This document shows, piece after piece, positions 26,219 through 56,419 of a stretch of DNA of 64,000 nt. Source of the stretch: a bacterium. Its GTDB lineage: Bacteria; Margulisbacteria; WOR-1; O2-12-FULL-45-9; XYB2-FULL-48-7. The notes under the pieces were generated by a model, which was given only the letters and a program-made list of their open reading frames with translations, did no database searches and was not told where the DNA came from. Every line of letters starts with the position of its first letter. Within the stretch, counting starts at the first letter, position 1. Position numbers and translations under genes: made by a program. The stretch spans positions 32,001 through 96,000 of the forward strand of contig JBDRLW010000003.1 in assembly GCA_043812655.1 (NCBI GenBank), given 5' to 3'.

Positions 26219-27190
26219 ATGGCAAAAATAAATAATAACAAACCAAAACTCCTCCTCGAAAAACCGCTGGAGGAGCTTTACGCTAAGATCGAAAAATTAA
26301 AAGTCCTTCAGGAATCCGGCAAAATGGACATGACCGAGGAGATCAAAATGCTGGAGAAAAGGATCGAAAATACCCGTAAAGAAATATTCTCCAAGATTAC
26401 GCCGATCCAATGCGTCCAAGTTGCCCGTTACATTATGAGACCGACTACGCTTGATTATATCGATCTGCTATTTAAAGACTTTGTTGAACTCCATGGCGAT
26501 CGTAATTTTTCTGACGATCCAGCTTTAGTTACCGGGATCGCCAATCTCGATGGCCGCTCGGTCATTGTGATGGGCCACCAAAAAGGCCATTCAACCAAAG
26601 AAAATATTGCCCGCAATTTTGGGATGGCAAATCCTGAAGGCTACCGCAAAGCCCTCCGGCTAATGCGCCTGGCCGAGCGTTACAACAAGCCGATCATTTC
26701 TTTTGTTGATACGCCGGGAGCATATTGCGGTTTAGGCGCTGAAGAACGTGGCCAAGCCGAAGCGATCGCTAAAAACCTTCGGGAAATGGCAGAGCTGACT
26801 GTCCCCTTTATTTCCATTATTACTGGTGAGGGTGGCTCTGGAGGGGCGCTAGGAATAGCGATGGGAAATAAAGTTTTGATGCTTGAATATTCAATTTATT
26901 CGGTGATCTCCCCCGAAGGCTGCGCCTCGATCCTTTTCCGTGACGCATCACGCGCTAATGAAGCGGCTAATGCGATGAGGATCACCGCGCCAGACCTGCT
27001 TGAACTCGGGGTAATTGATGAAGTGATCAAAGAACCGATCGGCGGCGCGCACAACGATCCGGCCTTTATGGCCAAAAATATCAAGGCCGCCATTTTAAAA
27101 CATCTAGAACCGCTTCTCTCCCTCTCTCACCGCGAGCTAATAGCCGACCGGTACAACAAATACCGGAAGATGGGAATTTTTAACGGATAA
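26219..27190 (+). CDS. accA: Acetyl-CoA carboxylase carboxyltransferase alpha subunit
   Basis: ELHGDRNFSDD, GYRKALRLM, GEGGSGGALG, YSVISPEG. Confidence 0.95.
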   Translation: MAKINNNKPKLLLEKPLEELYAKIEKLKVLQESGKMDMTEEIKMLEKRIENTRKEIFSKITPIQCVQVARYIMRPTTLDYIDLLFKDFVELHGDRNFSDDPALVTGIANLDGRSVIVMGHQKGHSTKENIARNFGMANPEGYRKALRLMRLAERYNKPIISFVDTPGAYCGLGAEERGQAEAIAKNLREMAELTVPFISIITGEGGSGGALGIAMGNKVLMLEYSIYSVISPEGCASILFRDASRANEAANAMRITAPDLLELGVIDEVIKEPIGGAHNDPAFMAKNIKAAILKHLEPLLSLSHRELIADRYNKYRKMGIFNG

Positions 27191-27202: not shown

Positions 27203-27604
27203 TGCCGCGGAGAGGAATTGAACCTCCATGGGTTTAACCCCGCTAGCTCCTGAAGTCCCGCTTCATTAATATTTTATCATAATGACTTGCGGGATCCCGA
27301 CGATTACATTATTATCATATCTTAATGACCGTCGGGACTAGTGCGCCCGCCTTCGGCGGGTAAATCTGCCAGATAATAAACTTGCTTCTTCAAATGCCCA
27401 GGAGAGGAATTGAACCTCCATGGGTTTAACCCCGCTAGCTCCTGAAGCTAGTGCGTCTGCCAGTTCCGCCACCTGGGCATTTGAAGGTGGAAATATTCTC
27501 TCATAAATTGACTGCTGATTCAAGATATTTTTCTGAAAAAAAAGGAGATAGTTCCGCTTTACCCGCCACAGGTGGGTTTACCCGCCGCAGGCGGGCATAG
27601 CGGC
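27203..27604 (-). pseudogene. Fragmented outer tRNA-Leu(CAG) copy enclosing the intact gene
   Basis: tRNA segments 27596-27604, 27551-27557, 27365-27372, 27338-27345 and 27203-27255 in correct order, separated by hairpin inserts. Confidence 0.75.
27395..27478 (-). tRNA. tRNA-Leu(CAG), CCA not encoded
   Basis: GCCCAGG/CCTGGGC acceptor stem, ctagc-ttCAGga-gctag anticodon arm, long variable arm, GGTTCAATTCC. Confidence 0.93.
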
Positions 27605-27610
27605 ATAAAA

Positions 27611-27695
27611 TGCCGCTGGCCGGAGTTGAACCGGCACGGGGGTTAACCCCACTTGATTTTGAGTCAAGCGCGTCTGCCAATTCCACCACAGCGGC
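27611..27695 (-). tRNA. tRNA-Leu(CAA), CCA not encoded
   Basis: GCCGCTG/CAGCGGC acceptor stem, cttga-ctCAAaa-tcaag, GGTTCAACTCC. Confidence 0.93.
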
Positions 27696-27760
27696 ATTTC
27701 GACTCCGTCTCGACTCACTGCGTTCGCTCGACGTCGCTCAATGCCGAGAGAAGCCGAGAC

Positions 27761-27815
27761 ATTCCACTTTACCCGCCTGCCTACCGGCAGGCAAGCCGTA
27801 GGCGGGCACAGCGGC
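27761..27815 (-). pseudogene. Extra 5' fragment of tRNA-Leu(CAA) interrupted by a CCCGCC-GGCGGGTAAA insert
   Basis: Minus strand gccgctgtg [39-nt insert 27768-27806] gtggaat matches the first 16 nt of tRNA-Leu(CAA). Confidence 0.7.
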
Positions 27816-27852
27816 ACGACAACTATGGTGAGTATAGCAAAATAATTAAAGC

Positions 27853-27882
27853 TTGACAATAAACTATCTTATAATGTATTAT
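27853..27882 (+). promoter_or_regulatory. Probable sigma70 promoter for rho
   Basis: TTGACA-18 nt-TATTAT. Confidence 0.45.
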
Positions 27883-33833: not shown

Positions 33834-34137
33834 GCCGCGGTGGCCCGCCTACGGCTTGCCTGCCGGTAGGCAGGCGGGTAAATGGAACTGGCTGGCACTT
33901 ACATCCCGAAGTTGAATGCAATTTTTTGCCGAGGTGGTGGAACTGGCAGACACACCAGCTTGAGGGGCTGGCGCCGTTAAAAGCGTAGGAGTTCAAATCT
34001 CCTCCTCGGCATAAAAATTGCTTTCAAATTCAGAGATGGAGGTTCTCCCGACGGACATTATAATAGAATAATGATGAAATCGTCGGGATCCCGATTTCCG
34101 CCAAAGGCGGAACATCGGGAAAGTCCTCTCCGCGGCA
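33834..34137 (+). pseudogene. Outer tRNA-Leu shell (5' and 3' ends) interrupted by hairpins and enclosing tRNA-Leu(GAG)
   Basis: gccgcggtgg[insert]tggaactggc ... ggaggttc[two hairpins]aagtcctctccgcggca; perfect GCCGCGG/CCGCGGC acceptor stem. Confidence 0.75.
33928..34011 (+). tRNA. tRNA-Leu(GAG), CCA not encoded
   Basis: GCCGAGG/CCTCGGC acceptor stem, ccagc-ttGAGgg-gctgg, GTTCAAATC. Confidence 0.93.
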
Positions 34138-34140
34138 TTA

Positions 34141-52606: not shown

Positions 52607-52975
52607 GCGCGCTTAGTCCCGACGATTCGACTTGCGTCGAATGTCGGGATCCCGATTTCCGCTGTAAGCGGAACATCGGGACTCAGCTGGTTAGAGTACT
52701 TGTCCCGATGGTCATTAGAATAGATAGTAATGGAATCATCGGGATCCCGAGGCTGAAGCTACCATTATTGCGCGCGCGCTTAGCTCAGCTGGTTAGAGTA
52801 CTTGCTTGACAGGCAAGGGGTCACAGGTTCGAAACCTGTAGCGCGCAATAATGGATTAGTTTACTCGGGACTTGACAGGTGCCTTGACTTAGCTCGGCAC
52901 AGGCAAGGGGTCACAGGTTCGCCTGCCCCGAGCGAGGAACGAAGTGACGAGTCGAGGGGAAACCTGTAGCGCGCA
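52607..52975 (+). pseudogene. Outer tRNA-Val(GAC) split into five segments by four inserts, one carrying the intact gene
   Basis: Segments 52607-16, 52682-702, 52871-79, 52904-21 and 52960-75 concatenate to a sequence identical to 52774-52847. Confidence 0.9.
52774..52847 (+). tRNA. tRNA-Val(GAC), CCA not encoded
   Basis: GCGCGCT/AGCGCGC, cttgc-ttGACag-gcaag, GGTTCGAAACC. Confidence 0.94.
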
Positions 52976-52981
52976 TTTTTA

Positions 52982-55909: not shown

Positions 55910-56419
55910 ACCTGAGAATGAATTCTCGGTTCCATTTAACGGATGCAAAAATAAATTTTCGCATCCTAGGAAACGATAAAAATGCTCTATCATTATAATT
56001 TCAGGACTTATTTAAGGAAACCGACCTTGGAAGATAAGGAAATAAGGTTATTTCTAAAAGAAATTTTCCTTGAAATATCCAAAGAAAAAGGTTTTGATAT
56101 TATCGAATGCGAAATACTATCGGAACATGTCCATATTTTAATTGAACACAGCTATACCTTAAGCACTTCGCAAGTCATGAAATTTTTGAAAGGTATTTCC
56201 GCAAGGAGACTTTTCCAGCAATATCCTACTAATAGGTTTGAACACAAAAAACTTTGGGGAAGATCATTTTTCGCCAAAAAGATCACTAATGAAGAAAAAG
56301 ATAATGTTATTGATTATATTAGGAACCAAAGAAATGAAGAAGGTATTGATAAAAGATTCTAAGGGTGCGAGAATTTATTCTCGCGGGCCCCTGAATAACC
56401 GCGAATTCATTCGCAGGTT
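55908..56419 (+). mobile_element. IS200/IS605-type (Y1 HUH) element without tnpB, bounded by hairpins, between pyrK and pyrD
   Basis: tnpA flanked by inner hairpins (55941-55966, 56362-56390) and outer inverted GAACC REPs (55908-55935, 56397-56419). Confidence 0.8.
55982..56362 (+). CDS. tnpA: IS200-like Y1 transposase
   Basis: EHVHIL (HUH), KGISAR, LWGRSFF, YIRNQ catalytic Tyr. Confidence 0.9.
   Translation: MLYHYNFRTYLRKPTLEDKEIRLFLKEIFLEISKEKGFDIIECEILSEHVHILIEHSYTLSTSQVMKFLKGISARRLFQQYPTNRFEHKKLWGRSFFAKKITNEEKDNVIDYIRNQRNEEGIDKRF

Follow-up and report, generated by a model that had tools for sequence, protein, structure and literature searches.

The window analysed here is a stretch of 64,000 nucleotides (nt) on contig C3 of a bacterial genome of the Margulisbacteria lineage WOR-1 (assembly GCA_043812655.1; here G000). 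Between a tRNA-Leu(CAA) gene and accA, the minus strand of the window carries an intact tRNA-Leu(CAG) gene that lies inside the broken pieces of a second tRNA-Leu(CAG) gene. The broken gene is referred to as the shell, the intact gene as the inner gene, and the whole arrangement as a nest. Five shell pieces stand in tRNA order and join to form an 84-nt tRNA-Leu(CAG). They are separated by two tandem hairpin units, a 179-nt block that holds the inner gene, an inverted hairpin unit and a double hairpin (Table 1). The shell starts 6 nt past Leu(CAA) and stops 12 nt short of the accA stop codon, and the neighbours of the locus are accD, accA and rho.

Table 1. Features of the tRNA-Leu(CAG) nest and its immediate neighbours (window coordinates).
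Feature	Coordinates	Strand	Remarks
Shell piece 1, gccgctatg	27596-27604	-	5' acceptor strand, tRNA positions 1-9; 2 substitutions vs gccgcgg
Two tandem 19-nt hairpin units, CCCGCC-N3-GGCGGG-TAAA (CCCGCC..GGCGGGTAAA)	27558-27595	-	between tRNA positions 9 and 10
Shell piece 2, gcggaac	27551-27557	-	tRNA positions 10-16
Inserted block, 179 nt	27372-27550	-	holds intact tRNA-Leu(CAG)
Left part of block	27480-27550	-	remnant homologous to 3' end of GIY-YIG gene, and inner tRNA promoter
Inner tRNA promoter	TTGAAT 27523-27518; GAGAAT 27500-27495	-	17-nt spacer
Inner intact tRNA-Leu(CAG)	27395-27478	-	acceptor gcccagg/cctgggc; ARAGORN 27394-27479; Rfam 27395-27478, 52.5 bits
Trailer of block	27372-27394	-	first 7 nt (tttgaag) and A73 pair with cttcaaat upstream of inner tRNA
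Shell piece 3, tggcaga	27365-27371	-	tRNA positions 17-23
Inverted hairpin unit, tttacccgccgaaggcggg, 19 nt	27346-27364	-	between tRNA positions 23 and 24
Shell piece 4, cgcactag	27338-27345	-	tRNA positions 24-31
Double hairpin, two TCCCG..CGGGA hairpins of 43 and 39 nt	27256-27337	-	canonical 30/31, anticodon stem, ctag|cttc
Shell piece 5, 53 nt	27203-27255	-	positions 32-84; differs from inner gene at 79-80 only
tRNA-Leu(CAA)	27611-27695	-	upstream partner in ancestral Leu(CAA)-Leu(CAG) tandem
accA open reading frame	26219-27190		Pfam ACCA, E = 2.4e-144

An earlier note, made from the letters of the window alone, had described the shell segments in tRNA order, the two tandem CCCGCC units, a block of about 180 nt with an intact tRNA, one further unit and the TCCCG pair. 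All of these elements were located, nearly base for base. The third shell piece, which the note had placed at 27365-27372, is real; its base 27372 (c) is redundant, since the pieces join to 85 nt with it and to 84 nt with 27365-27371. With the inserts removed in silico, as had been proposed, ARAGORN calls the joined shell a tRNA-Leu(CAG) in which five of the seven acceptor pairs remain and two are mismatched (t.c and a.c). Compared with the inner gene, the joined shell has the same base at 78 of 84 positions; the six that differ (gene positions 4-7 and 79-80) all belong to the acceptor stem, as in the earlier description of a shell that equals the inner gene outside this stem. Three short exact pieces in the correct order were recovered in none of 200,000 mononucleotide shuffles of the 263-nt surroundings.

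The inner gene is the sole tRNA-Leu(CAG) found by ARAGORN in the whole genome. The arms CTTCAAAT/ATTTGAAG (27486-27479 and 27395-27388; cttcaaat/atttgaag), which were thought to extend its acceptor stem, do so: when folded as DNA, they lengthen the acceptor helix. The TCCCG pair folds as DNA into two hairpins (z = -5.2), and equally stable folds were not present among 200 shuffles (0/200). Canonical insertion numbers are counted from the anticodon, with positions placed by eye on conserved tRNA landmarks. By this numbering, the pair in the Leu(CAG) shell and the pair that holds the inner tRNA in a tRNA-Val shell of the same window both lie between positions 30 and 31, which confirms the shared position of about 30/31 proposed for them.

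The comparison with relatives covers a class set of 65 genomes, and accA was found in 41 related genomes. At many of the loci read, a plain tandem of Leu(CAA), 10-23 nt and Leu(CAG) lies beside accA. These plain tandems are present in G007, G010, G014, G021, G024, G022, G018 and G038, so the presence of the nest varies at the same locus. A Logan contig from a relative also contains Leu(CAA) and Leu(CAG), 15 nt apart. Leu(CAG) occurs in the class with two acceptor types: gcccagg/cctgggc, which is the type of the inner gene, and gccgcgg/ccgcggc. The gccgcgg 5' strand is joined to a D arm in 20 of the 65 genomes, both in Leu(CAG) and in other Leu isoacceptors, and an intact gccgcgg/ccgcggc Leu(CAG) lies right after Leu(CAA) in G022, G018 and G038. 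The shell begins with gccgcta and ends with ccgcggca, which is the gccgcgg type with two substitutions in the 9-nt 5' piece.

Because the shell holds the native tandem position and has the acceptor type of the relatives, it is read as the resident gene and the inner gene as a newcomer. On this comparison, the shell is the native, displaced gene and the inner gene is the incoming copy. The earlier suggestion that the shell is decaying also stands: its 5' acceptor strand departs by two substitutions from gccgcgg, the type to which its own 3' strand is complementary and which relatives have intact at the locus.

Nuclease-bearing counterparts of the 179-nt block are present in two relatives. In G023, which belongs to another family of the same order, the same nest with the same D-loop break point as in G000 contains an intact open reading frame (ORF) of 89 amino acids (aa). 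The order in G023 is shell positions 1-9, one CCCGCC unit, positions 10-16, about 60 nt, the 89-aa ORF, a promoter and a complete Leu(CAG). Downstream of this inner Leu(CAG) are 18 nt, shell positions 18-23, an inverted unit and shell positions 24-85. The inverted unit at 23/24 is identical at 19 of 19 positions between G000 and G023. The 89-aa ORF, at 494-760 in locus L043, has a Pfam GIY-YIG match (E = 2.3e-18), and its nearest solved structures are two UPF0213 proteins that are annotated only as hypothetical.

In G005, which belongs to the family of G000, a homologous cassette of nuclease, promoter and tRNA lies at an anticodon-stem site on another contig, away from accA. Here the order is shell positions 1-9, a unit, positions 10-23, a variant unit, positions 24-31, a nuclease gene with 70% identity, a promoter and an intact tRNA. 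The cassette junction in G005 (31|32) is the tRNA position of the double hairpin in the G000 shell. G023 and G005 each have one CCCGCC unit at the 9/10 site, and the 9/10 and 23/24 insertion positions are common to all three genomes.

In a sequence alignment (A2), the G000 block lines up with the nuclease ORF (at its 3' end) and the promoter of G023 and G005; it also lines up with the promoters that precede standalone Leu(CAG) genes in G006 and G009. The promoter, TTGAAT-17-GAGAAT/GAAAAT, is kept in all five sequences, with hexamers that are invariant except for one column each. A consensus promoter scan passed over TTGAAT-17-GAGAAT (8/12 matches), and it is assigned as the inner tRNA promoter because of its conservation in this alignment. 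The block does hold an intact tRNA, as the earlier note had it; that account overlooked the probable remnant of a GIY-YIG cassette and the newcomer status of the inner gene.

The nuclease coding sequence (CDS) of the relatives contains AAAAGCGGWAT, shell piece 2 ends in TAAAGCGGAAC, and the repeat AAAGCGGAA is common to both. Shell piece 2 may double as the junction of a deletion by which the nuclease gene was lost. Close to the nuclease C-terminus, the conserved codons for K-S-G-x-G-R read AAAAGCGGWATTGGCMGAG (694-712 in locus L043 of G023; about 1698-1716 in locus L049 of G005), similar to the tRNA-Leu D arm GCGGAACTGGCAGA. This similarity may be a coincidence, or it may be the microhomology behind the loss of the nuclease in G000.

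The G000 locus shares most features of a tRNA-nested GIY-YIG cassette. It has an insert inside a tRNA gene that supplies a working copy and leaves a disabled copy, and the disabled copy contains hairpins at recurrent positions (9/10 and 23/24 as in G023 and G005; 30/31 as in the Val nests). A nuclease ORF inside the insert is present in the G023 nest and the G005 cassette and absent from G000. The G000 locus is at best a degenerate, nuclease-less member of these cassettes. In the reading that we consider the probable one, with moderate confidence, it is the decayed footprint of a tRNA-targeting GIY-YIG cassette from which the nuclease has been lost and which was later hit by hairpin elements.

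This reading can be laid out as a series of proposed steps. A native Leu(CAG) with the acceptor gccgcgg/ccgcggc would have stood right after Leu(CAA) and just before the end of accA. Its D-loop would have been split at 16/17 by a cassette made up of a small GIY-YIG gene, a promoter and a complete Leu(CAG) of the gcccagg/cctgggc type. The replacement tRNA would keep the cell viable and leave the broken native shell free to decay. Small hairpin elements would then have settled in the shell at 9/10, 23/24 and 30/31, sites that come up repeatedly in different genomes. The nuclease gene would have been lost, likely by deletion between the AAAGCGGAA repeats in the shell and in the nuclease CDS, with the promoter and the tRNA remaining. 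Gene conversion with the inner copy would hold the body of the shell identical, while the acceptor strands escape and keep their original difference. In this scheme the nuclease is presumed to cut tRNA genes, and the cassette would spread by homing, i.e., by break repair copied from a cassette-bearing allele.

The Val(GAC) nest of the window (52607-52976, plus strand) contains four inserts, of which the second and third are common to G006. The first insert is a double hairpin at 10/11. The second, at 30/31, is also a double hairpin, and the intact tRNA lies in its second hairpin. The third, in the anticodon loop region, is a 20-nt tgcc..ggca element with a 4-nt cagg repeat, and the fourth is a 38-nt T-loop element.

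G000 and G006, which belong to different genera, both have the Val nest at the same 30/31 site, and G000 has two extra inserts. Between the two genomes, the first Val hairpin is identical at 40 of 42 positions and the 20-nt insert at 18 of 20. The arms of the second hairpin have diverged and still pair next to the inner tRNA. All four lineage-specific differences in the Val T arm are carried by both the shell and the inner gene within each genome, and the two copies are therefore read as evolving in concert. By analogy, gene conversion at Leu(CAG) would keep the shell body identical and leave unconverted the outermost acceptor bases and the isolated 9-nt 5' piece, to which all six differences are confined.

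Across the G000 genome, 11 of 45 tRNA genes have shell fragments (curated by eye): Ser(tga), Leu(cag), Leu(caa), Leu(gag), Val(gac), Met(cat), Arg(ccg), Pro(ggg), Pro(cgg), Tyr(gta) and Glu(ttc). All six GIY-YIG minigenes of the genome lie within 9-117 nt of a tRNA gene, three upstream of a tRNA (Ser, Tyr and Arg) and three downstream (two Gln and Pro). All 10 true copies of the TCCCG double hairpin and all eight exact matches to its junction motif are in tRNA nests. Just 1.66% of the genome is within 400 nt of a tRNA. The true copies are full-length hairpins kept by eye from a loose TCCCG scan, which gave 150 matches, mostly chance matches on 5-nt ends. In a loose scan for the hairpin unit, 6 of 20 matches are within 400 nt of a tRNA. 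Four of the five exact copies of the CCCGCC-N3-GGCGGGTAAA type that were detected are in tRNA shells, as are a variant unit and nested copies that the scan missed.

Other shell candidates were dropped as neighbouring paralogous tRNAs or chains of 5-nt pieces. These are Thr (2), Lys (2), Ser gct (2), Gly (3), Pro tgg, Arg tct, Arg gcg, Ala ggc, Val tac, Val cac and Ser gga.

Several of the other nests have structures of their own. At Leu(CAA), on the minus strand, a consensus promoter flagged by the scan (TTGTCA-17-TATACT, 27859-27831) is followed by a displaced 5' copy, gccgctgtg (27815-27807), then by a CCCGCC unit (27806-27768) that encloses a second hairpin, cttgcctgccggtaggcagg, and by gtggaat (27767-27761). 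A GC-rich, hairpin-like filler of 64 nt separates gtggaat from the intact Leu(CAA) gene, and the whole displaced region is 27697-27859. The Leu(GAG) nest is on the plus strand (33834-34138), with the intact tRNA at 33928-34011. Upstream of this tRNA are the 5' shell gccgcggtgg, a nested hairpin-in-hairpin unit as at Leu(CAA), and tggaactggc. Downstream, a stretch ending in atggaggttc is followed by a TCCCG double hairpin at 34047-34121 (T loop, 56/57) and then by aagtcctctccgcggca. The Leu(GAG) shell has a gccgcgg acceptor and a T arm like that of Leu(CAG) and unlike that of the inner Leu(GAG). On these grounds, the Leu(GAG) cassette may have landed in a different Leu gene.

The Arg(CCG) locus (contig C9, 50750-51430, minus strand) contains a single TCCCG hairpin, a GIY-YIG ORF, the intact tRNA and two successive 3' remnants. 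The first remnant covers positions 42-76; the second, which has two changes, covers positions 59-76. Both have the same 26-nt spacer in front of them, together with a double hairpin. This locus looks as if it had been invaded twice. A third insert family, rich in GAGCGAACGAAGTGAGTCGAG, is present in the T loop of the Val shell (52929-52966), upstream of Leu(CAA) (27697-27760) and in the 3' remnant of Glu(TTC) (contig C30, 106800-106900).

The nuclease was found in 59 of the 65 genomes of the class. In 30 fetched loci, 24 of 31 nuclease matches are at most 120 nt from a tRNA, and 22 of those have a same-strand tRNA directly downstream. Three of the other seven are 251-690 nt from a tRNA, and four have no tRNA in the locus (at least two of them at contig ends). 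Among the eight matches closest to the Leu(CAG) nuclease, seven are within 91 nt of a Leu tRNA; the nearest tRNA to the eighth, also Leu, is 690 nt away. The junction motif of the double hairpin is present in 40 of the 65 genomes, and a reversed control is present in one. The 30 junction-motif loci comprise 10 chance matches in coding sequence, four that are hairpin-like but indistinct, and 16 with a total of 17 resolved pairs. Twelve of these pairs have tRNA flanks and one is ambiguous. In G030, the second tRNA-Leu(TAA) called by ARAGORN (locus L092, 1949-2031) has its 5' end replaced by a CCTGCC hairpin unit, gcctgcctgccggcaggcagg, and is probably a hairpin-tagged shell that was mis-annotated as a tRNA.

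The tRNA-embedded pairs in G000 and its relatives occupy six positions: 10/11, 15/16, 24/25, 30/31, 39/40 and 56/57. The sequence AG|C, often AG|CT, is common to the first five sites, and the site at 56/57 is GTTC|RA. Position 10/11 lies opposite 24/25 across the D stem, and 30/31 lies opposite 39/40 across the anticodon stem. The earlier note held that the inserts target tRNA structure rather than one sequence. The recurrence of positions in different tRNAs agrees with this. The view is supported in part only: five of the six sites share AG|C(T), and a short motif recurring in both arms of an inverted repeat explains the sites as well as structure does; the two are inseparable here. In the Pro(ggg) locus of G017 and the Pro(cgg) locus of G004, the double hairpin is at 15/16 in the displaced 5' fragment and the nuclease junction lies further on, near 27-28. 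The hairpin is therefore read as a tag in a dead fragment and not as the boundary of a cassette.

A number of observations weigh against the favoured reading of a decayed cassette. No ORF is present in the 179-nt block, and a tblastn search for GIY-YIG sequences gave no match on contig C3 near the locus. The case for a past nuclease at this locus rests on about 50-70 nt of block homology together with the relatives, and the first 30 nt or so of the block align weakly to the nuclease 3' end. For the UPF0213-like subfamily, neither a cleavage activity nor a target is on record. The cassette model leaves unexplained how the cassette allele escapes its own nuclease, as the intact inner tRNA retains the presumed target, and it gives no account of hairpin insertion without target duplication. 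The acceptor types are reversed in G023 (5' shell gcccagg, inner gene gccgcgg), where the 3' shell is also mismatched to its own 5' shell; because of this reversal there is no single direction of replacement across genomes. The first Val hairpin is 95% conserved between genera beside arms that have diverged, which is unexpected for pure junk or neutrality. Four of the 17 resolved pairs in relatives have AT-rich flanks unlike tRNA, and G006 and G016 have double hairpins where the nuclease query found nothing.

The last two observations also count towards the strongest of the other explanations, in which the hairpins are autonomous miniature elements that target tRNA-like DNA. The tRNA would have been duplicated independently, by slippage or recombination, and the spare copy would tolerate the inserts; the GIY-YIG genes would be passengers or users of the same safe sites. 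Solo double hairpins in shells without a nearby nuclease (this locus and the Val and Met nests) are in line with this explanation. The 23/24 variant in G005 differs from the unit in G000 and G023, which suggests independent insertions at one site, and the double-hairpin elements of Allomyces are held, in part of the source, to move on their own (PMC2800124). However, no transposase is linked to these hairpins. The explanation also does not account for an intact copy inside a broken one at complementary break points (16|17) in two families, or for the position of all six nuclease genes at tRNA genes. We regard it as unlikely.

The genome has three Y1 transposase/RAYT-like genes, and the hairpins that flank them belong to another family, GGAACCTGCGAG. 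One of these genes, of the IS200/IS605 type, is in the window (55979-56329, plus strand), and its flanking hairpins of the GGAACCTGAGAAT type are unrelated to the hairpins of the tRNA nests. A REP/RAYT system was rejected as a candidate on the same grounds: the flanks of the three Y1_Tnp genes have hairpins of the GGAACCTGCGAG type and not CCCGCC or TCCCG units.

A more elaborate proposal is a two-part selfish system that attacks the tRNA genes of the class, with a minimal GIY-YIG nuclease and hairpins that read cloverleaf-forming DNA. The shells would be sacrificial landing pads that shield the working copy, which would escape by swaps of acceptor pairs (gccgcgg to gcccagg here, and the reverse in G023). 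Insertion sites that oppose each other across the D and anticodon stems speak for hairpins that read the cloverleaf. The proposal as a whole is speculative, and we give it a small chance of being correct.

The nest might also be a functional RNA unit, with the shell and the hairpins under selection as a processing scaffold, as a promoter/terminator module, or as a decoy for insertions or tRNA-directed nucleases. The conservation of the first Val hairpin fits such a unit, as the two genera have about 72% accA DNA identity and the neighbouring arms are scrambled yet complementary by the tRNA. The identity of shell bodies to inner genes and the A-type hairpins with TATAAT-like loops (identified by eye) fit as well. 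Against it stand the two mismatches in the acceptor stem of the shell, insert sets that differ between genomes (two extra in the G000 Val nest) and the many relatives that do well with a plain tandem. No gene for a tRNA-splicing endonuclease was found (PF01974, EndA; no match in the 93% complete genome, with a positive control in four archaea), and the inserts form a perfect four-way junction by eye and not a bulge-helix-bulge. A functional unit of this kind is improbable.

Two kinds of intron were rejected as candidates. An archaeal bulge-helix-bulge intron or split tRNA does not fit the missing EndA match and the junctions, which by eye form flush helices. For a group I intron in tRNA-Leu, a scan of the window at Rfam gathering thresholds gave six tRNAs only, and the inserts are 19-179 nt long with none in the anticodon loop.

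tRNA genes are classical integration sites for islands and phages, and the genome has three tyrosine-recombinase genes. The fragments could on this basis be what remains of the attachment sites of an integrase-driven island or phage that once inserted into a tRNA gene and later excised. The recombinase genes are on contigs C1 and C30, however, and none is near the locus, where the neighbours are accD, accA and rho. The breaks are in the D arm and the 5' anticodon stem, in the 5' half of the gene, and the 5' parts are duplicated, which differs from the 3'-end repeats of integrases; the inserted block is just 179 nt. No integrase-bearing island bounded by these break points was seen in the 41 genomes with accA. 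An integrase-borne tRNA island was rejected, and remnants of one are very improbable.

The least probable explanation, which we consider negligible, is that strain variants were stitched together in this 46-contig metagenome-assembled genome, in which repeats are hard to assemble: the same architecture is present with lineage-specific sequence in the independent genomes G023, G005 and G006, and the nest is real and not an artefact. The Logan matches are all DNA contigs from four runs and are mostly tRNA-only matches from other organisms, and two short contigs bear on the nest. A contig of run X1 (record 3) matches 27258-27401 exactly; this run is possibly the source sample, and the contig may not be independent. 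A contig of run X6 (record 22), from another study, covers 27338-27439 with three substitutions and contains a shell piece, a unit, a shell piece, the trailer and the inner tRNA.

The tRNA genes of a bacterium usually count as its most stable and conserved ones. In this genome about one quarter of them are rebuilt loci in which the native gene is broken and a working replacement is nested in it or beside it, and the pattern is class-wide. If the decayed-cassette reading is correct, such loci would allow tRNA genes to be replaced horizontally, also by acceptor-stem variants that are relevant to synthetase recognition, and they would suggest a possible biological role for the mini GIY-YIG proteins of UPF0213, a large and unexplained family. 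Where shells are present, tRNA annotation and synteny analysis can go astray. The six insertion positions are a concrete target for the biochemistry of the nuclease and of hairpin mobility.

Several known systems share features with the nests. REP/REPIN elements are short GC-rich hairpins mobilised by RAYT (Y1) transposases. The CCCGCC..TAAA units resemble them as short, GC-rich, multicopy hairpins whose tail is conserved and some of which are paired, in tandem or in inverted orientation; they differ in that they are mostly in tRNA shells and that the RAYT-like genes are flanked by a different hairpin family. The closest published parallels, as far as the portions of these sources available go, are the mobile ORFs and double-hairpin elements of fungal mitochondria and SegB of phage T4. 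In phages T4 and T6, SegB is a free-standing GIY-YIG homing endonuclease in a tRNA cluster that promotes the inheritance of its own tRNA region (PMC2330249, PMC13096335). A GIY-YIG nuclease among tRNA genes is the shared feature; SegB is phage-borne and sits between tRNA genes, and its abstracts describe no split or nested tRNA and no hairpin tags. SegB is also larger than the minimal nucleases described here.

The double-hairpin elements of Allomyces mitochondrial DNA consist, according to the same partial source as above, of two adjacent hairpins without flanking target duplication and are suspected of mobility (PMC2800124). Fungal hairpin elements differ in load between close relatives, can lie in RNA genes and avoid structurally important parts of genes (PMC2800124, in part). 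The TCCCG pairs resemble the Allomyces elements in having two adjacent hairpins, no target duplication, uneven loads in relatives and positions inside RNA genes. Unlike those elements, all 10 genome copies here lie inside tRNA sequence, at six positions, and always in a disabled copy.

Mobile ORFs (mORFs) of fungal mitochondria are known from atp6 of Allomyces macrogynus and from atp6, atp9, cox2 and nad3 of Glomus, as described in part of PMC3630166. In these cases a conserved gene is invaded by a free-standing endonuclease gene (GIY-YIG in Glomus atp9), which supplies a copy of the part that it displaces, so that function is kept. The native part remains beside it as an unexpressed remnant, and the sequence difference points to a foreign donor (PMC3630166). 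The nests share with these excerpted cases an invaded gene, a replacement part borne with an endonuclease and a divergent native remnant beside it. They differ in their bacterial chromosome, their tRNA targets and their minimal nuclease of 80-90 aa, which is a catalytic domain. What is duplicated in the nests is either the 5' part or a whole gene together with a promoter, in contrast to the C-terminal coding part in mORFs, and the remnant is riddled with hairpin inserts, with the nuclease gene gone at this locus.

A literature search on GIY-YIG and homing endonucleases with tRNA genes, and on hairpin-bearing GIY-YIG elements, mostly at the level of abstracts, found no nested bacterial tRNA genes with cassettes. 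The present locus adds a clear polarity, with a native shell and an incoming inner gene, and it has counterparts that bear a nuclease: a nest with the same break point in G023 and, in G005, a homologous cassette. It also adds the swapping of acceptor types and a map of six discrete positions of hairpin insertion. If the cassette reading is true, the nests would be the counterpart, on a bacterial chromosome, of the mitochondrial mobile-ORF phenomenon.

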